A stretch of DNA of 48,456 nt from a virus (Duplodnaviria > Heunggongvirae > Uroviricota > Caudoviricetes): IMG/VR virus record IMGVR_UViG_2850808358_000014, one strand, 5' to 3'. A program made the translations under genes and the position numbers. The notes under the pieces were generated by a model. That model was not told where the DNA came from. It was given only the letters and a program-made list of their open reading frames with translations, and did no database searches. This document shows positions 1 through 48,053 of the stretch, piece by piece. Numbering within the stretch: position 1 is the stretch's first letter; every line of letters starts with the position of its first letter.

Positions 1-1011
1 GTGTTCACGAAAACAGCGCAGCTCTGGCATAACGCCACGCCGCATCCGCACTGGTGCGGCCTGACCCTGCTGGCCATCGATGGTGTGTTCTGGCGCACAC
101 CGGATACACCAGAGAACGATGCAGCCTTCCCCCGCCAGACACATGCCGGGAACCCGGCGCTCTACCCGCAGGTCAAAATGGTCTGCCAGATGGAACTGAC
201 CAGCCATCTGCTGACGGCTGCAGCCTTCGGCACGATGAAGAACAGCGAAAATGAGCTTGCTGAGCAACTTATAGAACAAACCGGCGATAACACTCTGACG
301 TTAATGGATAAAGGTTATTACTCACTGGGACTGTTAAATGCCTGGAGCCTGGCGGGAGAACACCGCCACTGGATGATACCTCTCAGAAAGGGAGCGCAAT
401 ATGAAGAGCTCAGAAAACTGGGTAAAGGCGATCATCTGGTGAAGCTGAAAACCAGCCCGCAGGCACGAAAAAAGTGGCCGGGACTGGGAAATGAAGTGAC
501 AGCCCGCCTGCTGACCGTGACGCGCAAAGGAAAAGTCTGCCATCTGCTGACGTCGATGACGGACGCCATGCGCTTCCCCGGAGGAGAAATGGCGGATCTG
601 TACAGTCATCGCTGGGAAATCGAACTGGGATACAGGGAGATAAAACAGACGATGCAACTGAGCAGGCTGACGCTGAGAAGTAAAAAGCCGGAGCTTGTGG
701 AGCAAGAGCTGTGGGGTGTCTTACTGGCTTATAATCTGGTGAGATATCAGATGATTAAAATGGCGGAACATCTGAAAGGTTACTGGCCGAATCAACTGAG
801 TTTCTCAGAATCATGCGGAATGGTGATGAGAATGCTGATGACATTGCAGGGCGCTTCACCGGGACGTATACCGGAGCTGATGCGCGATCTTGCAAGTATG
901 GGACAACTTGTGAAATTACCGACGAGAAGGGAAAGGGCCTTCCCGAGAGTGGTAAAGGAGAGGCCCTGGAAATACCCCACAGCCCCGAAAAAGAGCCAGT
1001 CAGTTGCTTAA
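1..1011 (+). CDS. insG: IS4 transposase InsG, C-terminal 336 aa (5' end cut by window edge)
   Basis: ORF translation matches the E. coli IS4 transposase C-terminus as I recall it ([17 protein letters not shown] ... KKSQSVA); the GTG at position 1 is an edge artefact. Confidence 0.92.
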
Positions 1012-1024
1012 CTGACTGGCATTA
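1..1024 (+). mobile_element. IS4 insertion sequence, right-hand ~1 kb (left part outside window)
   Basis: Carries the 3' 1011 bp of the IS4 transposase gene; the ~18 bp after the stop (about 1007-1024) read as an IS4-type terminal inverted repeat, then AT-rich non-IS DNA. Confidence 0.8.
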
Positions 1025-1295
1025 ACCGTAAGGGTTGGTTTTTTCTTGGCACGAGAGTAGTTTAATTGACCGTGTAACCGCATGATTTTAATCAATATTA
1101 TTGATTCAACTTTTAAACCGTATAACCAAACGTATAACTAAAATAATTTGCTGAAAAAATGCACAATTTAAACGGCGATTGCCCTAGCGACTTCCATGAT
1201 TCTACCTGGATTTTTTTTCGCTCATTCGTTTTTAAGCTGGTGGATGTTCCCCGATATGGGGATCACCACCTACCGGAATTTTTGCCAGGTTATAT

Positions 1296-1416
1296 GTTAA
1301 CCGCTGCCCTGTTAACATTTTTACCAAAAAGGTAGTTAACATTTTTTACACGCAACCAGATGAATCATAAAGGGAAAATCAATAAAAACGCTTCATCAGG
1401 TAGTTAACATGTTAAC
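1296..1416. repeat. cluster of five GTTAAC-core repeats (two as GGTAGTTAACAT)
   Basis: Read directly in AT-rich non-coding DNA; a sixth GTTAAC lies near 1520. Confidence 0.5.
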
Positions 1417-1570
1417 TACTACGAAACGGTAATTTTTTCTCTGCGTGAGAGTGGGCGCGGTGTCCGGCTTGTTCGTTGTTCGTGGCTAACCACTCCCCCC
1501 CATACCGAATTTTTTTCCGGTTAACCTTTAATCAGGCTGGTGGGCTTTACATACCCTTGATCACGGTAAT

Positions 1571-1739
1571 GATGATTCAGGTACGCATCTTTCCACCAAT
1601 GGTGGAAAAGCCCACAGCAGGCCGCCCAGCCTCCCCCAATGGGGGATTGTGGAAGAATCAACGGGTTAGGCCTTAATGGGCTGCGTCACCATGTTGGTGA
1701 TTCAGGTGCGCACCTTTCCCCCTGTGGGGTAAAAGCTCC
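1571..1739. repeat. two ~43-bp direct repeats about 125 bp apart, each with an internal hairpin
   Basis: GATGATTCAGGTACGCATCTTTCCACCAATGGTGGAAAAGC versus GGTGATTCAGGTGCGCACCTTTCCCCCTGTGGGGTAAAAGC; the stems CCACC/GGTGG and CCCC/GGGG differ by compensatory changes. Confidence 0.5.
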
Positions 1740-1782
1740 AACCGTAACGATGTTCGTTATGGTCAACGGTTAAACCGTCTCT

Positions 1783-1820
1783 TTGTCACTGTGTGTCACT
1801 GCTTGTCACTCTCCGTCACG
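1783..1820. repeat. four tandem TGTCAC-type repeats
   Basis: TTGTCACTG TGTGTCACTG CTTGTCACTC TCCGTCACG read directly. Confidence 0.45.
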
Positions 1821-2071
1821 ATTGGGCGTGGTCATTATGACCATTCCCAAAAACCCCATATTCGTGGTTTTTCTGTGTCGGGGCTATTCTGCTGTTGCCG
1901 TGCTGGTGGATATTCTCCGGTATGCGGCTCCCCATATCGGCATCAGGCCCACCAGCGTGAAGCGTTTTTCATTTTTCGCGGGTATAAAAAATCGATGGGG
2001 CTAGCAGTCCGGAAGAGGTCAGGGCACAGAGATTTGACCCGCCCCTCCCTGTGCATTAGCACAATAAGTGA

Positions 2072-2095
2072 CCGAAGGCGGAATTCCGCCCTCGG
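2072..2095. repeat. GC-rich near-perfect palindrome CCGAAGGCGGAATTCCGCCCTCGG
   Basis: Inverted repeat with one mismatch; no flanking T-run, so not a clear terminator. Confidence 0.4.
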
Positions 2096-2189
2096 TACTT
2101 ACATATGAGAAACGATATTTCTTCCACCGATACCCTTTATTTGGGTATCGCGAGTAAGCCCCAAAATCTGGGTGTTACTCTTACTACCC

Positions 2190-2272
2190 AAACTACGGGT
2201 AGTTTCCGTAGTTTCATAGTCGAGTTGCAGATCTGCAACTCGCCACCAGTTGCTAAGTGCATTTTTGCACTT
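2190..2272. promoter_or_regulatory. cluster of three palindromes 3' of the HTH gene (candidate protein-binding or packaging sites)
   Basis: AAACTACGG-N7-CCGTAGTTT; perfect 20-bp GAGTTGCAGATCTGCAACTC; AAGTGCA-TTTT-TGCACTT. Confidence 0.4.
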
Positions 2273-2289
2273 TCGGTAATATCAACCAG

Positions 2290-2674
2290 TTACCGCCGTA
2301 AGTGCTCCGGCTTCCTCCACTGGTAAGTATTTTTCGCGCTCTCCCTCCGTTGTTGAGAACGGCGACGATATGCCAGCAACTCAAGGACTCTTGTTCGTAT
2401 GTTGCGCATATCCACGCCGTTAAGCTCAATACCGTCACGGCGCATCACCTCAGCCACCACACGCGCGTAATTTTCAGCGGTGACGCTGTCCGGCTGCGTG
2501 GCCACCTGTTTGCCTGTTGCCTGACAGATTCCGGTAATACGGCGGATTACTTTCAGTAGTTCGGCGTCGGTCATGGTTATGGTTTCCATAGTGATGGGGG
2601 AACAATTTCTGTAATCTGCGAAGCTGGCGATCGGTCAGACTCAAATGCCTGGCAACTTCAGTCTGAGTAGCCAC
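2290..2674 (-). CDS. small HTH DNA-binding protein, reading frame apparently disrupted
   Basis: GTG-start ORF with SD GAGGTG (N-terminus MATQTEVARHLSLTDRQLRRL, HTH-like) overlaps a 99-aa ORF in another frame; the first frame ends in a His/Arg-rich tail. Confidence 0.45.
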
Positions 2675-2749
2675 TGTTCACCTCGCCCAAAAATCTCCCC
2701 TCATGCGTTTTAAACATGCATCTTGCGAACAACTTTATGAAACGCGGCA

Positions 2750-2850
2750 TATATGTCCGGTTTGAGTGTTCAATTTTTGCGCATGTCCGGTTCGCAGAAA
2801 GCGCATTTCTATATTTTTCAAATGGTTAACCTTCAGAGAAACCGGACATG
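2750..2850 (-). promoter_or_regulatory. promoter/operator region upstream of the HTH gene with three ATGTCCGGTT repeats
   Basis: Two direct copies and one inverted copy between the terminator at about 2940 and the gene start at 2674. Confidence 0.4.
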
Positions 2851-2932
2851 GTTTCCGAAAAATTTTCATAAATAGTGAAATTCTGCGCCGCTCCCGCCCC
2901 GTGGCAGGCCACCCCACCGGAAGGACCCGCAA

Positions 2933-2962
2933 AAAAAAGCCGGATTTCTCCGGCCTTTTCTC
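2933..2962 (-). terminator. rho-independent terminator after the 137-aa gene
   Basis: On the minus strand, GCCGGA-loop-TCCGGC hairpin followed by a run of 8 U. Confidence 0.6.
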
Positions 2963-3374
2963 AGATGGTTTTCAGTATGCGATCGATTTCGCCGTCATCA
3001 CCCTGATATCTGCCATCGTATGCCATGCCAGGGCTTACGGCCTGCGGGCTGTGCATGTCCATAAAGTTTTCAAAGGCTGCGGTAAGCTCCGGCGCAACCT
3101 TCGGGCGTTCCTGCTCTATGGTCATGTTCAGGATTTCCCGGGCATTATCGACGCTAATACATGGCACGTTTGCCATTGCACGTAACAGCGGCTGATAGTC
3201 GTCAGATTCATGAAGCGCCATAATCGCATCAGTGCGCGGCTTGTCCTGCTCTTCCAGTTTGTTAAGTTGATATATAGCCTCGTAGGTTGATAAACCTCTG
3301 TCCGCCATTGCCCGCGCTTCGGCTTTAAATTTACTCGCCAGCGGTAGCGCCATGATAGCTTCATTGATTGCCAT
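2961..3374 (-). CDS. hypothetical protein, 137 aa, last gene of the capsid operon
   Basis: Intact ORF directly downstream of the gpD-like gene and followed by a terminator; no family recognised. Confidence 0.6.
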   Translation of the reverse strand: MAINEAIMALPLASKFKAEARAMADRGLSTYEAIYQLNKLEEQDKPRTDAIMALHESDDYQPLLRAMANVPCISVDNAREILNMTIEQERPKVAPELTAAFENFMDMHSPQAVSPGMAYDGRYQGDDGEIDRILKTI

Positions 3375-3386
3375 CGTTCCCCCTGC

Positions 3387-3676
3387 TTATCGCACCAGTG
3401 GCTGAACGGATACGCCAGAACCCGCAAAAGCGGCGCATTTTTTCGCGTCGGTGTCGACGCTCTCGGGCCAGTTAACGGCGGCGATATTAAATATCCCCGT
3501 CTTGTAACACTGTGCTGATTTCTGCTTTGACGTGTCCACGGGTACGCCGTCAGATAAACAGCCTTGCCAGATTCCTGACCATCCCACGCCTTAAACTCGC
3601 CATTGTCCGCCAGCATCAGCGGAAAAATGTACCAGCGTCGTGGCAACCTGCTGTGTGCCTGCATATAACTCAACAT
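3387..3676 (-). pseudogene. lambda gpD-like head decoration protein, frameshifted
   Basis: Two overlapping ORF fragments; joined they read ...EFKAWDGQESGKAVYLTAYP|VDTSKQ...KKCAAFAGSGVSV, which resembles the lambda gpD core (KLVAWDG...KKRTAFAGTAISIV); the break is at a C run near 3541. Confidence 0.6.
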
Positions 3677-3700
3677 ATGGAGTGCCCATAGAATCTCCCG

Positions 3701-4756
3701 TTAACCAATTTTCACAGTAACAAATTTGCGGATATCTGCCGGAACCGGCTGCGGTGCGCTGTGCGTCTGCACGTACTCAATCGCCGGATCGCCGCTCTCA
3801 ATCCAGTTTTTCGGGTAGTACATGTTTTGCGTTGCGCCCGTTCTTACCGCTTCCGGATCCATAATCGCGCCATAGGCCACCAGACCTTTATTGCTGGTGT
3901 TGCCCAGGACAAGCAAATCAGGCTCAAGGAAATATTTTTCGGTGCCGTCGCTGTCGGTGTATTTGCCGGAATAGACGATAAGGGCCAGATCACCCAGATA
4001 GCCTTTAAAGCTCACCACTTCGCCCAGGTTTTTACACGCCAGCTCTGCGGCGGATTCTGAACCACGGGAAAGATCGTACAGCTCGCGGAATTTTTTAAAG
4101 CTACGTAAGGTGCGCCATACGTCAGCGCCCATAATCATGACGTTGGCGGGGCAGCTGGCCTGTTCGGCGTATAGCTCGATGTCATCTGTCGGATCATGCG
4201 TCTCTTTATTCTGCTCAGACCATTTTTTTCCTGGCCCCTGATGGACAATGCAGTTTGCCGGCATATTCCAGTCGATTTCATAGCGTTCTATGCCTTCGCC
4301 TTCAATGATGTTTTTTCCGGTCGTGACCGCATTCACTGCCAGCCATTCCACACGCGCTTTAATGGCGTTTATCTGGCGGCGCATGTTGCCAGTAATGAGG
4401 CGCATACGTCGCCAGGTGGGGTCGTTAAGCAGTGCCGGATCTTCTCCAGCCATGCGCATGATGGTTTTTGATGGATCGATTTCGTGTTTGGGTTTCATGT
4501 AGCCAGGGCGGATAGTGCTTGTTTCGTACCCTTTATCACGCTGAACCTGGCTACCCACCACAGGCGAACAAAACGCCGACATGGTGACTTCTTCAATGTC
4601 CAGGGTATCCAGCATGACATCTTGTGTGTTGAAGGTTGCTACTTTCGGGAAAAACAGCGTGGTAAACAGCGGACTGAATTTAAATTCCGGGATATCCCCG
4701 CGATTCAGGTACGCGAAAAGCTGGTTAGTGTTAAGTGCCGTTGCTTTGTCTGCCAT
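3701..4756 (-). CDS. lambda gpE-like major capsid protein, 351 aa
   Basis: Collinear similarity to lambda E as recalled (PGYMKPKHE, DPTDDIE, KGYLGD, YPKNW motifs) and near-identical length. Confidence 0.85.
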   Translation of the reverse strand: MADKATALNTNQLFAYLNRGDIPEFKFSPLFTTLFFPKVATFNTQDVMLDTLDIEEVTMSAFCSPVVGSQVQRDKGYETSTIRPGYMKPKHEIDPSKTIMRMAGEDPALLNDPTWRRMRLITGNMRRQINAIKARVEWLAVNAVTTGKNIIEGEGIERYEIDWNMPANCIVHQGPGKKWSEQNKETHDPTDDIELYAEQASCPANVMIMGADVWRTLRSFKKFRELYDLSRGSESAAELACKNLGEVVSFKGYLGDLALIVYSGKYTDSDGTEKYFLEPDLLVLGNTSNKGLVAYGAIMDPEAVRTGATQNMYYPKNWIESGDPAIEYVQTHSAPQPVPADIRKFVTVKIG

Positions 4757-4962
4757 TATTCACCCTCATGAGTCTGATTCATGCCAAGCGCCGCACGTAA
4801 ATAGGCGCGTACCTGCCAGCCTGTTGACGGCTCAACCATCGCCAGCGGATCAAGTCCTGCCGCAATGCCCGCTTTTACGTTCTGCTGGTGGCGTTCCTTG
4901 AGCGCCTCCACGATATCGGGGCTTATGTAAACTGTCACCCCGCCTTTTTTCTCTTCTGTCAT
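4756..4962 (-). CDS. hypothetical protein, 68 aa, translationally coupled to the capsid gene
   Basis: Its stop overlaps the capsid ATG (TAATG); no family recognised. Confidence 0.5.
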   Translation of the reverse strand: MTEEKKGGVTVYISPDIVEALKERHQQNVKAGIAAGLDPLAMVEPSTGWQVRAYLRAALGMNQTHEGE

Positions 4963-4991
4963 AGTCAGAAATTCCTTTTCGACTTAAAAAA

Positions 4992-5019
4992 TTATAACTG
5001 GATGTACATCCAGTTATAA
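4992..5019. promoter_or_regulatory. perfect ~27-bp palindrome TTATAACTGGATGTACATCCAGTTATAA upstream of the capsid operon
   Basis: Perfect dyad with a CTGG-N8-CCAG core about 30 bp upstream of the 68-aa gene; candidate operator. Confidence 0.45.
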
Positions 5020-5139
5020 TTATAATCATAGTTGCATTTTGTGCAATAGAATTGAGTTGCATTGCAAATTATGAAATGATTTACGGCAACAGTAGTCACC
5101 ATGCTGTTAACCTCGTAAGCAAAAGCCCGATAAGCTTCC

Positions 5140-5196
5140 TCCTGTACTTATCGGGCTTTTTTTGGGTACAAAAAGCCGGATTTTCTCCGGCCTGTG
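5140..5196. terminator. pair of hairpin plus T-run terminators (bidirectional)
   Basis: CCCGATAAG...CTTATCGGG followed by T7 on plus; GCCGGA-TTTTC-TCCGGC followed by U-run on minus, almost identical to the hairpin near 2940. Confidence 0.5.
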
Positions 5197-5199
5197 CGT

Positions 5200-5610
5200 T
5201 CAGAACGGAATATCATCACCGTAGGGGTCATCGTCTCCCGCTGGTGGCTGATTACCCTGTGTGCCTGTGGTTTTGCGTCTGTTCCCGCCAGGGCGTGCCG
5301 CTCGGGCACTGATTACGCTGTCGGCAATAACCTGATAACCCTGCCGCGTTTCCCCGTTCTGTCCGGTCCACTGGCTGACCTGCATCGTGCCGGATACGCT
5401 GGCAACGTCGCCTTTTTGATGTTTAGCCAGGAAGTCGGCCTGCTTACCAAATGCCATCACCGATAGCCATAACGTCGCCTGTCCGTCCTGTGCCTGGCTG
5501 CATGGCAGCGATACCGCCATACGCGCCAGCGTCATCGGTGTGCCCTTGCTGGTCTGTTTTACCTGCGGGTCGTCCACCAACCGTCCGTAAGCTGCTATCT
5601 GTGCTGTCAT
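5200..5610 (-). CDS. ssb: single-stranded DNA-binding protein (short phage/plasmid type)
   Basis: OB-fold-like N-terminus, Gly/Gln-rich linker and acidic C-terminal tail ending DDDPYGDDIPF. Confidence 0.85.
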   Translation of the reverse strand: MTAQIAAYGRLVDDPQVKQTSKGTPMTLARMAVSLPCSQAQDGQATLWLSVMAFGKQADFLAKHQKGDVASVSGTMQVSQWTGQNGETRQGYQVIADSVISARAARPGGNRRKTTGTQGNQPPAGDDDPYGDDIPF

Positions 5611-5885
5611 GATTCCACCTCTCCGGTTTTAACGTTGATGGTTGTTACCTGTTCCGCTTCGGCAATCTCCCGTTCTGTCAGCGTGGCAAAGTTTGCCGCT
5701 GCTGTGGTCATGAATGCGCTTATCAGGTCGGGATGTTCCTTCGCGTATCCTTCCCCCGCGTGGCGGTCTATCGTTCTGATTGCCACCTTTAAAGCGTGCT
5801 CTGTCATGTCTAACGCGCGATATTTCGGTTCTGTTCTGTCTCTGCGTTTTTTGAGTGATTTATTAAATTTTCCTGAAGTGTGCAT
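5607..5885 (-). CDS. hypothetical protein (92-aa ORF; true start may be internal)
   Basis: ORF between the origin and ssb; no family recognised. Confidence 0.45.
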   Translation of the reverse strand: MHTSGKFNKSLKKRRDRTEPKYRALDMTEHALKVAIRTIDRHAGEGYAKEHPDLISAFMTTAAANFATLTEREIAEAEQVTTINVKTGEVES

Positions 5886-5929
5886 GTTTATTTTTACCCC
5901 CTCGTTTAAAAAGTTTTGAGTTGTGCCTC

Positions 5930-6160
5930 CCCTTGTCTACCTTATCTACCTTGCTGGCCCTCATGCCAGTAATGGCGCGGCTTTCAGCGGGTAGAGTGTT
6001 TTTATCCACTATCTACCCCGTGTCTACCTCCCTGTCTGATTCAGGTAAAATCAGGTAGAGAGGGTAGATAGTGGGTAGACAGTAAAAAAAAGCTGTCTAC
6101 CTAACTTAATGTACTGAATTAAATGTATTTTCCTTTGCTCAGGTAGACAGCAATTACAAA
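5930..6160. repeat. replication origin: about 10 iterons of consensus YNTCTACC in both orientations plus an AT-rich stretch
   Basis: TTGTCTACC, TTATCTACC, CTATCTACC, GTGTCTACC, CTGTCTACC and inverted GGTAGAG/GGTAGAT/GGTAGAC copies directly 3' of the primase gene. Confidence 0.6.
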
Positions 6161-6163
6161 AAA

Positions 6164-7917
6164 TTATAAAAACGCGTCGCACTCGTCTGTTGTTATTGCG
6201 TTAGTCTGCGTTACCCCCTTAACTTTCCGCGTAATATATTCATGTCCGTAAACTTTTGCGGCAGGCTTCATAGCCTTGCCAAAGTCATTTACGTTTAGCG
6301 GTTTGCTCCTGCCTGCGTATGCCATAAACGCCAGATAGACGCGGTAAAGGCTGTTCCTGGTCGTGTACTTCACTGAATCACCACCGCCACCCATCATCAG
6401 GCCGCGCGCTTCCTCCAGAAAATTCAGGAACTGGCAAAACTCAATAACCGGATCCGTCTGTTGCTTTATTGCCAGTGCTTCATCACCGTCACGCTGTTCC
6501 AGTAGTAAAGCCCGTGCCTTCTCAGGGTCGGTAAAGTTCGCCAGCAATCGGCGGATAATAACGGGGATTTCAGCCGCAATCTTTTCCGGTAGCTCCCTGT
6601 CTTTTTCGGCCTCACTGACGATATTGTCGAAACGGAAAATCACGCGACGACGTGCCACACCTCCGGCCCGTTCGGTGAATATCATCGGGTTGTTGTCGGT
6701 CGCCAGCACCACCGCCCTGATTACCGCCGTGAAACGCTTTTCATATTTCGGGTTAATTTCCACGGGTCGCCGCCCGTGATTTTCTTGATGCCCGTTCCTT
6801 CGCCTGTATATTTCGGCTGGTCAGCCAGGACGATAAGACGACTCCCGACAACCTGCGCACGTCCACCAGCATCATCAAGCGATGTCATTTCAGCGCTTAC
6901 CGTGTTCTGTTTCCCTGCCAGAAGGCTGGCTATGTGTGTGAATGTACTTTTACCGCTCCCGCCGTCTCCGGTGGCCTCAATAAACATCTGCCAGTCGTAC
7001 CGGTTCGCCATAATCATGTAAAGCGCGGCACATATGCGCATCATCTTGCGCGGGTCTTTTCCGGCTGCGTGATCAAGCCATTTATGAAAGTTTGGCGCGT
7101 TGTCGCGGATATTCTCCCCTGGTGCTGGTGGCGTGTACTCAATGCCGTTGTGCGTGGTGATCCAGTTCTCCGGCGTGTGCGGGGAAAATTCCCCCGTTTT
7201 CAGGTTAAGCACACCATTAGTGAACGGTAGCAAATCACTGGACGGCTCGCCCATCGGGTCAGCAATAACTTTTAACGCTTCAACGGCGTTATTAATTGCC
7301 CGCTTGCTGAATGTGGCCCCGTGTTCTGAATAAACCGCCACCATTTCGCGGCTCAGTTCCATTGTGCTGACCGGACACCATATCCCGCCGCGCCATACGT
7401 GAACGATTTCACTTTCCGGATGCACACAAACGCCATCAAATCGACCAGCAAGCATCTGTGCGCGCTCACTGTCTGCCATCTGCGAAAGTTGCGCCTTTTG
7501 CTTTACCGGAAGCTCAATGACCAGACCATCAGAAAGATTCTGGCGTTCACGGGCCAGATATTCGCGCCAGTTCTGCACCTCCTGGCCGTGCATACCCTCA
7601 AGATAAAAATTTGCATCCTGTACACCTGCCGCCGCCAGCTTCTGACCAATCGCCTTGATCATTACAGGCTCAAGATGTCCGGCTCTGTATATGCGTGCTG
7701 ATTTTCTGCCATCCGGCACAATTTGCAGATTATCCAGTTCGGATAGCTGCTGCTCTCCAAGCCACACAGGAGGCTCATTATCTCCGGCTGTACGCGCGTC
7801 ATGTTCCTGCCACTGTTTCGCGTGTGCCCAGGCATCACTACCCGCAAAGATAATTACCTCTGTGTCTTTGTGTTTTATTCCGCGTGGCTGTTTTTTTACG
7901 TTCGGTGCCAGTTTCAT
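6164..7917 (-). pseudogene. P4-family primase/helicase, frameshifted
   Basis: 398-aa fragment with toprim-like N-terminus and Walker A GDGGSGKST, plus a 199-aa fragment in another frame; the join ...ITGGDP|VEINPKYEK falls at a G/C run near 6765. Confidence 0.75.
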
Positions 7918-8213
7918 TTTTTACCCCTGAATACGTTAAGCATCTTTTTTATTTCCTGAATATTGGCGCGTGCTTTCTCCCTGCTGGTGGGCACGTTACG
8001 CGGTACGGCCTGCACAAGAGAAAAATCACGGTCGAACTGATAAACAGGCATCACGCAATCATATTCGTAGCCTTCACGACGGTAGGTTACGCGCCGTTCC
8101 TCCACGCCCTTAATTATTACCGTGCCGCCGTACTTATCGCGGTAAATATCCCCGCGCATGAATTTAGTGCGAGTTTTGCCGCTGGCAGTTAAGCCAGGAT
8201 ATTTAAGTTTCAT
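7914..8213 (-). CDS. hypothetical protein, 99 aa
   Basis: Intact ORF whose stop overlaps the primase start; no family recognised. Confidence 0.5.
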   Translation of the reverse strand: MKLKYPGLTASGKTRTKFMRGDIYRDKYGGTVIIKGVEERRVTYRREGYEYDCVMPVYQFDRDFSLVQAVPRNVPTSREKARANIQEIKKMLNVFRGKK

Positions 8214-47228: not shown

Positions 47229-47522
47229 GTGAAAGGCTCCTTTGCTTGATGTAAGGAGTCTCGCCAGCACGCTGTCAAACATGGTGGCGGGACGTAACAG
47301 GGTTGACAGACTGGCAGCAAAGAAACCAGCGAGCGCAAAGGCTCCCCCGTTACGCCCCGCCATAATGCGGGTATGGGTAGGTTTACGGACACAAAAAAAC
47401 CGCATATCGGAATGTAAGCGGCTGTCCGCTTTGCTATTCAGGCTGTCAAACCCGGTCGCCATGTGGGCGACGGGGGAAGAATACAGCCCCACGGTAATTT
47501 TTTGCAAGTTGTTTTTACGCAT
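47229..47522 (-). CDS. hypothetical protein reading in frame into paralog A (no stop as given)
   Basis: Start overlaps the paralog B stop (ATGCGTAA); may be a separate gene merged by a frame error. Confidence 0.4.
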
Positions 47523-47703
47523 GGCCAACCCCCTGACGAATACGGGCCGCGAATACAGCAACACAACCGGACGGGCAATGGTTACGCGCTTCGCGTTCAG
47601 TCCAGGCGGTGACGTGGATGATTTGGGACTCTGACGCACCAAAGGCGATAAAGCGCCAGAGAAAGGCGGTTTGAGAATGTACAAGGGTAGGGGTAGTAGC
47701 CAT
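47515..47703 (-). CDS. small protein, tandem paralog B (possibly Icd-like)
   Basis: 62 aa with WRF and TEREAR...FAARIRQG motifs; same SD spacing as paralog A. Confidence 0.5.
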   Translation of the reverse strand: MATTPTLVHSQTAFLWRFIAFGASESQIIHVTAWTEREARNHCPSGCVAVFAARIRQGVGHA

Positions 47704-47795
47704 GTCGGCAGCCTCCTTGATTGATGGAATGTAACCACCGCCGGAGGTCCTAAGCTCGCTGGCGGTGGACTGTACAGGGTTAGGACTACTGGCAA

Positions 47796-48053
47796 TCAAG
47801 GGAACCAGCCTACCCGAAGGTAGCCCCATACAGCCCACCATTGTATAGGTGTGCGTGTGCGTCGATACAAAAAAGACGCGTGCGGCGTCTGTATCGCCTC
47901 GATTGTCAGCGGGGTCCTAATCCCGGCACCCGTTTTATAAGGTGCACGCGAATCATAGCCTTGGCTGGCAGTGGCGATCAACTGGTTTTTCATACCCGCT
48001 TTATTCAGGTTGTGCGAGTCCCGCCCTTGCAGGTGTGTGGTATGATTTAACAT
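47796..48053 (-). CDS. hypothetical protein, 85 aa, first gene of the leftward operon
   Basis: Internal Met of a longer tracked ORF; lies just downstream of the operator region. Confidence 0.5.
   Translation of the reverse strand: MLNHTTHLQGRDSHNLNKAGMKNQLIATASQGYDSRAPYKTGAGIRTPLTIEAIQTPHASFLYRRTRTPIQWWAVWGYLRVGWFP

Follow-up and report, generated by a model that had tools for sequence, protein, structure and literature searches.

The DNA analysed here, 48,456 nucleotides of IMG/VR virus record IMGVR_UViG_2850808358_000014 (the window), contains near its left end a stretch of non-coding DNA dense in short repeats and palindromes, which lies between an IS4 insertion sequence and the genes of a satellite, a phage-inducible chromosomal island (PICI). 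The genes to the right of this stretch, all on the minus strand, are p94, a scaffold-like gene, a broken gpD-type decoration gene, a gpE-type capsid gene and the genes of a single-stranded DNA-binding protein (SSB), a PerC-like protein, a D5_N primase-helicase and a DUF4222 protein. Their order is EcCICFT073's own (primase, DUF4222, SSB, PerC-like, capsid, decoration, scaffold-like, p94), and EcCICFT073 itself was among the matches. A specific attachment (att) site was also found, with the attR core at the 3′ end of proL. Positions 1058–2289, which span the whole distance from the stop codon of p94, the last PICI gene, to attR, are the non-coding tail of a PICI of the EcCICFT073 family, a recombinational mosaic in which the functional cargo probably consists of packaging signals. 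The features that define the borders of this tail and its cohesive-end (cos) sites are the following.

1–1024, plus strand: 3′ part of IS4 (transposase C-terminus and right terminal repeat ...CTGACTGGCATTA), inserted in chromosomal DNA, outside the satellite.
1025–1047: chromosomal remnant of the yejO-proL spacer hairpin, with a 9-bp deletion relative to K-12 (aligned to K-12 and two other strains).
1048–1057: attR core GGCACGAGAG, an exact match to the 3′ end of proL (tRNA-Pro), where the PICI ends (compared with K-12 proL and two PICI-bearing strains).
1263–1523: cos-A cassette, between imperfect 30-nt direct repeats (1263–1292 and 1494–1523; repeat comparison with EcCICFT073).
1296–1416, minus strand: five GTTAAC boxes, the cosB-like part of cos-A, presumed sites of the small terminase subunit (TerS); their phage counterparts occupy the interval from cosN to the start of terS.
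1423–1467, minus strand: core of cos-A (GAAACGG...GGTGTCCGG), with an A/T tract at 1431–1438.
1495–1501, minus strand: C-run (G-run when read on the minus strand), the upstream border of cos-A, where phage homology stops; the same G-run precedes the cos of HK97, SfV, phiP27 and mEp235.
1829–1843: palindrome TGGTCATTATGACCA, at which a tail like that of E. coli 042 (cos-A to GTCAC array) meets one like that of E. coli C21 (cos-B to p94).
1967–2050, minus strand: cos-B, HNH-type (SfV/SfII/ST64B/SfI/phiP27), with G-run 2036–2049, core 1997–2013 and A/T tract 1984–1990.
2290–2574, minus strand: p94 (94 aa, phrog_1561), always immediately upstream of the tail.
2603–2674, minus strand: remnant (24 codons) of a Nu1-type small terminase gene, encoding a winged helix-turn-helix (HTH) N-terminus.
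2691–2935, minus strand: lambda-type cos, with a cosQ-like part at 2917–2928 and cosN at 2888–2899 (aligned to the lambda ends, to a lambdoid prophage and to both cos sites of EcCICFT073).

The original prediction, made for positions 1296–2272, had offered as one possibility that this is the attachment or regulatory end of the element, truncated by IS4. The stretch does reach the attR end of the element, with candidate arm-type repeats at 1069–1139. On the other hand, IS4 stops at 1024, inside the yejO-proL spacer hairpin and 23 bp outside an intact attR, so the element is not truncated by IS4; comparison with K-12 and the two PICI-bearing strains ruled this truncation out. The tRNA fragment at attR (1044–1057) is damaged, since it reads TGG, a three-position gap and CACGAGAG, versus TGGTCGGCACGAGAG in proL, and the adjacent spacer has the 9-bp deletion. 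Damage of this kind at attR has been described as typical for PICIs (PMC10111431).

The density of repeats and palindromes in this non-coding kilobase was confirmed by counts and shuffles. Where five or six GTTAAC repeats had been noticed, there are six (at 1296, 1311, 1335, 1403, 1411 and 1520), all of them within 230 bp (1296–1525), versus 13 in the other 48 kb; the number expected in 230 bp is 0.09, which gives a Poisson probability of six or more of 7e-10, or about 1e-7 after correction for the number of windows. The supposed four tandem TGTCAC units are in fact three TGTCAC and one CGTCAC, i.e., GTCAC repeated four times with an exact period of 10 bp (1785–1819), an arrangement with a single match in the window and none in 100 shuffles. 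The GC-rich palindrome is found at 2071–2096 (ACCGAAGGCGGAATTCCGCCCTCGGT). Further palindromes are present too, with the correction that the "perfect 20-mer" is a perfect 22-mer (2221–2242); the other palindromes and hairpins lie at 1590–1608, 1632–1646, 1766–1778, 1829–1843, 2128–2150, 2183–2214 and 2255–2272. Between 1500 and 2290 there are 10 perfect stems (at least 7 bp, loop of at most 8 nt) versus 0.33 ± 0.54 in dinucleotide shuffles, a count reached in 0 of 300 shuffles and the highest among all the tiles of the window. The claim that the region has no convincing open reading frame was also upheld, as the frames of 105 and 73 aa gave a best family match of E = 0.0037, and no RefSeq coding sequence was annotated in the homologous tails fetched from other genomes. 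An Rfam search of 1000–3000 found no family at gathering score or at E up to 5, except for one meaningless microRNA match.

The suggestion that such an array marks cos or small-terminase binding sites is supported for the GTTAAC cluster, the cosB-like part of a sequence homologous to the intergenic region between the HNH and terS genes of BP-4795-type phages. It is not supported for the TGTCAC array and for most of the palindromes, which are PICI-specific modules and have no phage counterpart. A second cos, of the SfV/phiP27 type (1967–2050), is present in the region and had been missed.

Over 187 bp, the first site, cos-A (1296–1501), is 77% identical to the sequence between HNH and terS in BP-4795 and many Shiga toxin (Stx)-converting phages, the only phage match at this place. 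In an exact-pattern scan of viral contigs, the cos-A motif was located between HNH and terS in 83 out of 83, about 110 nt past the end of HNH and 182 nt before the start of terS, with the large terminase gene terL next, and it occupies the same place in BP-4795 itself. To judge from this homology, cos-A is a copy from lambdoid phages of the BP-4795/Stx type. The GTTAAC boxes stand between the predicted cosN and the position of the phage terS start, which is the place of cosB in lambda, and they are presumably bound by the cognate TerS of the Terminase_2 type. The cohesive end of cos-A is predicted to be the 10 nt at 1452–1461 (ACCGCGCCCA on the minus strand); the cut was placed by homology, from the alignment with the cos of SfV, phiP27, HK97 and mEp235, where it falls (slash) at GAC/CGCCCGCCCC in phiP27 and at GAC/CGCCGCCAAA in HK97. 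As to contig ends as a trace of cutting, a few viral contigs end near the cos-A motif, none of them at the predicted cosN. In EcCICFT073 there is a single copy of the 30-nt repeat that flanks the cassette in the window, and no cassette.

The distribution of the differences between the PICI copy and the phage consensus is informative. All 30 of the 30 positions of the GTTAAC boxes are conserved, and 42 of 45 in the core, versus 87 of 137 (64%) in the spacers and remainder and 26 of 83 in the left flank; conservation in boxes and core is thus above the neutral level given by the spacers and the outside. What is left in the PICI copy runs from the first GTTAAC to the C-run, and the coding flanks of the phage are gone. 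The conservation of boxes and core, with less conserved spacers and no coding flank, points to selection on the cos elements themselves. This bears on a rival explanation, according to which the tail is non-functional debris, recombination scar tissue in which cos-A and cos-B are leftovers with no present role, the lambda-type cos being the only one that was ever of importance. Scar tissue is suggested by the mosaic structure of the tail, by the copies of the p94 3′ end and the ant/roi-like fragments in it, and by a kilA-like fragment in a related tail. Against it, the cos segments alone were kept, in the absence of the HNH and terS coding flanks, and the boxes (100%) and core (93%) are far more alike than the spacers at an overall identity to the phage of 77%.

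The second site, cos-B, shows 90–94% identity to the extreme ends of the genome records of SfII, ST64B, SfV, SfIV and SfI, and it matches the annotated cos of phiP27. Both phage termini and an annotated cos fall within the homology: the SfV record, once aligned, has its right end at window position 2014 and its left end at the neighbouring 2013, the SfII, ST64B and SfI records end inside the match, and the annotated 10-nt cos of phiP27 (CGCCCGCCCC) aligns to 1997–2006, which is the predicted cohesive end of cos-B. The core reads TCCGGAC/TGCTAGCCCC on the minus strand. In the phages this sequence is likewise located between HNH and terS, the TerS protein being of the Terminase_4 family. By the same kind of comparison as for cos-A, cos-B is a copy from phages of the SfV/ST64B/phiP27 type. 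The cos of HK97, mEp235, SfV and phiP27, cos-A and cos-B share a common architecture, in which a G-run is followed after about 30 nt by GAC and a GC-rich 10-mer, behind which comes an A/T tract. TerS of HK97 binds an A-tract site 15–29 bp past the cut (PMC11331095).

The third site, of the lambda type, is outside the repeat stretch, 640 bp beyond cos-B. It shows the order cosQ, 12-nt cosN, cosB with three R boxes, and start of the Nu1 gene. Its cosN reads GGGCGGGAGCGG on the minus strand versus GGGCGGCGACCT in lambda, and the three R-like CCGGACAT boxes are at 2842–2849, 2783–2790 and 2753–2760. A lambdoid prophage carries a terS, confirmed as a member of the Nu1 family, whose 5′ end and upstream region are 98.8% identical to the segment 2603–2929. 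The HTH gene said to lie next to the array does encode a winged-HTH N-terminus, albeit as a remnant with only 24 codons of a lambda-type Nu1 terminase gene that is part of this third cos; phrog_57 and phrog_7289 match residues 1–25 only. In some members of the family, e.g., E. coli C21 (4760–5302), a full Nu1-family terS is found between the lambda-type cosN and p94, plus cos-B in the tail. No Rpp gene was found between two cos sites in the window, the place being occupied by the phage-type cosB and the Nu1 remnant. Also, neither p94 nor the Nu1 remnant gave a meaningful match as an Rpp homologue among the chain sequences of the Protein Data Bank (PDB), although a crystal structure of RppC has been published (PMC6739421).

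Considering the three sites together, their cognate TerS proteins belong to three Pfam families (Terminase_2, Terminase_4 and Nu1), and all three sites are on the minus strand, which would mean the same direction of packaging, toward attR. The helper-phage lineages behind cos-A and cos-B are unrelated to each other. A single satellite would thus seem open to packaging by three kinds of phage.

The modules of the window were mapped onto about 70 PICI tails, where they appear freely shuffled. Tails of the E. coli 042 type have the order arm, Chi, cos-A, Chi and, further on, the GTCAC array, and tails of the E. coli C21 type the order palindrome, Chi, cos-B, terminator and hairpins. Both parental types carry the palindrome of 1829–1843, with symmetric variants such as TGGTGATTATCACCA, and the stack of cos-A and cos-B probably arose by recombination at this shared palindrome between a cos-A tail and a cos-B tail. 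In the PICI of E. coli 042 (4183–6072), with cos-A in its tail, the gpE/gpD capsid genes are replaced by a fusion of ClpP protease and major capsid protein. BP-4795-type lambdoid phages, with their unusually long capsid reading frame, have a fusion of this kind. The capsid gene and the cos may be matched to the type of helper.

Among 5,426 complete E. coli genomes, the cos-A block was present in 50 and the cos-B block in 164, while a match to at least 80% of 1025–2300 was found in none. The 1,276-bp composite tail was however recovered, at 99.4–100% identity, with all three cos cores and always adjacent to yejO, from eight NCBI assemblies; the composite is therefore inherited and not a one-off. 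The exact p94 protein is recorded from Shigella boydii (27 contigs), and the decoration gene is intact in one assembly (locus L189). Tails with the GTCAC array only have a third cos of the HNH type directly beside the array (e.g., locus L100, 425–560), its homologue being the mEp235 spacer between HNH and terS. The occurrence of cos-A, cos-B and mEp235-like variants at one locus indicates that the tail is a polymorphic cos locus in the family. Coming back to debris as an explanation, the limitation of the combination of cos-A and cos-B to one lineage and the decay of this PICI copy speak in its favour, and the recurrence of both blocks in E. coli genomes, the third HNH-type cos at the same locus of other tails and the co-orientation of all the cos speak against it. 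On balance, debris is an unlikely explanation.

Several observations count against taking the tail as a carrier of working packaging signals. First, cutting and packaging at the cos sites are inferred from homology. The records used contain no mapped termini for a BP-4795-type cos, all the matching ones being prophage-derived. For cos-B, a discrepancy of 7 nt between the ends of the SfV record and the annotated phiP27 cos leaves the exact cut uncertain, and 2 of its 10 cohesive-end bases are not those of SfV, although other PICIs vary at these positions too. Second, the PICI of the window shows decay: its gpD-type decoration gene has become a pseudogene (3376–3700) with deletions of 32 bp and 1 bp with respect to a relative, the primase-helicase gene (6150–7925) contains frameshifting indels, terS is cut down to 24 codons, and a fragment like insertion sequence IS110, itself cut by the right end of a Mu-like prophage, interrupts the PICI at about 8.7–8.9 kb. 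Given this decay, the array may be inert here. Third, cos-A and cos-B occurred together in 0 of the about 70 other tails sampled, so that their stacking could be a neutral accident of recombination. Fourth, under the lambda rule, with entry of RecBCD at the right end, the Chi sites of the tail are in the inactive orientation (PMC12315714). Finally, the interpretation does not account for the GTCAC array, the 125-bp modules and p94. These elements and the other modules of the tail are the following.

1069–1139, plus strand: three direct repeats of 11–12 nt (ACCGTGTAACC, ACCGTATAACC and AACGTATAACT) and a palindrome (1087–1109), candidate arm-type sites of attP for integrase or accessory proteins.
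1236–1243, plus strand: Chi (GCTGGTGG) in the conserved block AAGCTGGTGGATG that opens the variable tail.
1536–1543, plus strand: Chi.
1561–1779: two paralogous modules of about 125 bp, with 51-nt repeats (1561–1611 and 1686–1736, 76% identical) and hairpins at 1590–1608, 1632–1646 and about 1714–1730.
1657–1673, minus strand: degenerate copy ("scar") of the p94 3′ end, ATCAACGGGTTAGGCC versus ATCAACCAGTTACCGCC at 2281, preceded by a hairpin.
1766–1819: conserved PICI block, with the palindrome ACGGTTAAACCGT followed by four GTCAC at a 10-bp period, an iteron-like array.
1902–1909 (plus strand) and 1949–1956 (minus strand): two Chi in opposite orientation, just downstream of cos-B.
2071–2096, minus strand: GC-rich hairpin with an 11-bp stem, likely the intrinsic terminator of the PICI late operon (terminator scan).
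2105–2289, minus strand: train of hairpins right after the p94 stop codon (2128–2150, 2183–2214, 2221–2242 and 2255–2272).

The repeats at 1069–1139 are probably best regarded as candidate arm-type sites for integrase and accessory proteins of attP. PICIs that use other att sites have different tandem repeats at this position, and such a variation with the att site fits the expectation for arm-type integrase sites. One could extend this interpretation and take the whole array for an attP arm plus regulatory end, with the repeats bound by integrase, by an AlpA excisionase or by a PICI regulator. The termination of the stretch at attR and the repeats of 1069–1139 would agree with it, and direct repeats with a 10-bp period, such as those of the GTCAC array, are typical of excisionase sites. 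However, the GTTAAC boxes are common to phages, between HNH and terS, and independent of the att type, and the GTCAC array is 730 bp away from the att core and occurs with several att sites. The extension to the whole array is thus highly improbable.

The GTCAC block was found downstream of p94 in 33 of the 37 viral contigs that matched the pattern, many of them with a fifth GTCAC, and in other PICI tails its usual distance from p94 is 68 bp. Neither the array nor the 22-mer palindrome had any match in the phage collection, and the viral contigs with one or the other are PICI-like elements with p94, except for a few unrelated tandem repeats. With its 10-bp phasing, the array is a candidate binding site for a protein that would contact a single face of the helix.

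Of the two 125-bp modules, the first is 95% identical to the tail of EcCICFT073. The RNA fold of 1561–1779 gave z = -4.6. Short, weak matches (40–52 nt, 82–90% identity) to phage antirepressor genes (ant/roi) were seen in 1590–1677, and a comparison of an O121 PICI tail with phages yielded only a 60-nt kilA-like fragment and no additional cos. Decayed pieces of phage accessory genes seem to be present in the tails. A 12-mer pattern of the p94 3′ end had only two matches in the 48 kb, both on the same strand, and several scars of this kind are present in other tails; the copies are read as scars of earlier exchanges of tails.

The combination of the GTCAC array with the pair of 125-bp repeats could also be taken for a cis-acting replication region similar to crr/ori of P4, bound by the PICI primase-helicase. 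Iteron-like repeats and a pair of direct repeats of about 120 bp recall crr of P4, and the PICI encodes a D5_N primase-helicase. P4 iterons are octamers of the TGTTCACC type, present at two loci and bound by the primase-helicase. The GTCAC motif is unlike them, and there is no second GTCAC array in the window, the vicinity of the primase gene included, so the array was rejected as a set of P4-type ori/crr iterons. Besides, many tails with the array are devoid of the 125-bp repeats, and the origin of a Gram-negative PICI has been mapped immediately 3′ of the replication initiation gene (PMC6092414). A role of this kind has therefore very little probability.

Chi sites flank the cos sites. The nine Chi of the window are all inside its PICI part (1236–7990), with 0 in the adjacent Mu-like prophage, and 66 related PICI loci have about 0.9 Chi per kb, a density several-fold that of the E. 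coli chromosome (about 1 per 4.5 kb). Their orientation diverges from the border between tail and body, with 70 plus and 27 minus in the tails, and 142 plus and 260 minus in the bodies. Their arrangement seems suited to an encounter with RecBCD coming from ends generated in the tail.

Another part of the tail with a marked structure is the one next to p94. The minimum free energy of RNA folding of 2050–2292 was -105 kcal/mol versus -60 ± 4.7 for shuffled sequences (z = -9.5), and two stems of the hairpin train are kept paired by compensatory changes in homologous tails. As pairing is maintained through changes on both sides, the train, which finishes with the terminator-like stem at 2071–2096, is read as a structured 3′ untranslated region. 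The hairpin at 2255–2272 and its homologues (L139, L145, L136 and L180) show at least three versions of the stem, GUGCA/UGCAC, GCCC/GGGU and GCGCA/UGCGU; as each version preserves the pairing, selection acts on structure rather than on sequence.

As to p94 itself, its AlphaFold model is of low confidence (predicted local distance difference test score of 65), with three helices and a short hairpin, and a Foldseek comparison of the model to the PDB gave no match below E = 2. A scan of genome contigs with peptide patterns of p94, which were too strict, returned a single locus.

Outside the tail, the N-terminal part of a transposase like those of the IS110 family (8686 to about 8880) is cut by an apparent Mu right end (TGAAGCGGCGCACGAAAAACGCGAAAGCG...). 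We take this fragment to be IS110-like from its sequence, judged by eye, and by analogy with an IS110 insertion annotated in another locus (L006). Beyond the apparent Mu end come mom (9003–9728) and a gin-like invertase gene (9920–10513). The occurrence of a Mu end inside an insertion sequence that is inside the PICI implies that a Mu-like prophage was inserted into an insertion sequence which had previously entered the PICI. The int end of the element is separated from the tail part by these IS110-like and Mu-like insertions. Rfam matches at gathering score in 47280–47945 (minus strand) comprise two C4 antisense RNAs, an a1/b1 target element and isrK. Their source may be the far half of the PICI or another prophage; relatives encode an Icd-like protein, as in the immI region of P1.

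The tail can be compared with several known systems. EcCICFT073 is packaged by a cos mechanism via its two lambda-type cos sites, its Rpp protein retargeting the TerS of lambda (PMC6092414, PMC6739421); HK97 was found insensitive to RppA by the same authors (PMC6092414, PMC6739421). The element of the window is alike in family and gene order, in cos packaging, in the lambda-type cosN just before the scaffold-like gene, and in the tail part 1546–1686, which is 95% identical. It differs in that the two lambda-type cos of EcCICFT073 are inverted around rppA and its tail is without HNH-type cos, whereas the element of the window is without rpp and has a phage-like cosB with the Nu1 remnant, plus two HNH-type cos that belong with other terminase families.

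The cos of HK97, mEp235, phiP27 and SfV resemble cos-A and cos-B in the HNH-terS position occupied by their counterparts in the homologous phages, besides the architecture described above. The PICI sites stand alone, without HNH, terS or terL. Moreover, the cos-A phages use a TerS of the Terminase_2 type and not of the P27/Terminase_4 type, and the five GTTAAC boxes are absent from HK97. In cosB of lambda (R3, R2, R1), short repeated boxes between cosN and the terminase gene serve as the TerS recognition element, and in cosmids a short DNA segment suffices to make any replicon packageable. The tail would be comparable in both points; the GTTAAC boxes differ from lambda cosB in being palindromic hexamers with irregular spacing (15, 24, 68 and 8 bp), to which TerS binding is putative. 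SaPIbov5 and SaPIbov4 are, like the present element, satellites with a copy of the helper cos, from a Gram-positive host and with unrelated sequences. The helper terminase of SaPIbov5 works with an HNH endonuclease. For SaPIbov4, two putative cos sites have been reported (PMC6092414).

On the interpretation of the tail as a carrier of packaging signals, the TerS of the induced helper itself would recognise the cognate cos on replicated PICI concatemers, the helper TerL (with HNH in the case of cos-A and cos-B) would cut the cognate cosN, and packaging would then run toward lower window coordinates. The stacking of cos sites would broaden the range of helpers able to package the island. A more general proposal, which we put forward tentatively and which has somewhat less than even chances of being correct, is that the tail of EcCICFT073-family PICIs is a dedicated locus of swappable and stackable cos cassettes. 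Exchange would occur by recombination at short palindromes and at the p94 3′ end, at least four unrelated terminase systems would be served (lambda Nu1; Terminase_2 with HNH; P27/SfV Terminase_4 with HNH; mEp235/HK97-like), and the helper range would be switched or broadened without any change of protein. In the same proposal, p94 and the GTCAC array might form a PICI-specific module that acts on packaging at the adjacent cos.

A full-text literature search in one library, which is no proof of novelty, retrieved no description of HNH-type cos, or of stacks of cos from different terminase families, in Gram-negative PICIs. To our knowledge, there is no case of cos sites of different terminase families stacked in one island. 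The 200-bp and 85-bp segments of cos-A and cos-B are candidate cosmid-like packaging signals for two groups of phages, and the GTTAAC boxes are a concrete candidate for the recognition element of Terminase_2-type TerS. Gram-negative PICIs are known to use lambda-type cos sites for packaging, the lambda terminase being redirected by Rpp. If the HNH-type cos of the tail work, the helper range of this abundant family of satellites would be set by small exchangeable DNA cassettes besides proteins. Stx-converting lambdoid phages, SfV-like serotype-converting phages of Shigella and lambda-like phages could then all mobilise one and the same island, and this would bear on the movement of virulence-linked islands between E. 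coli and Shigella.

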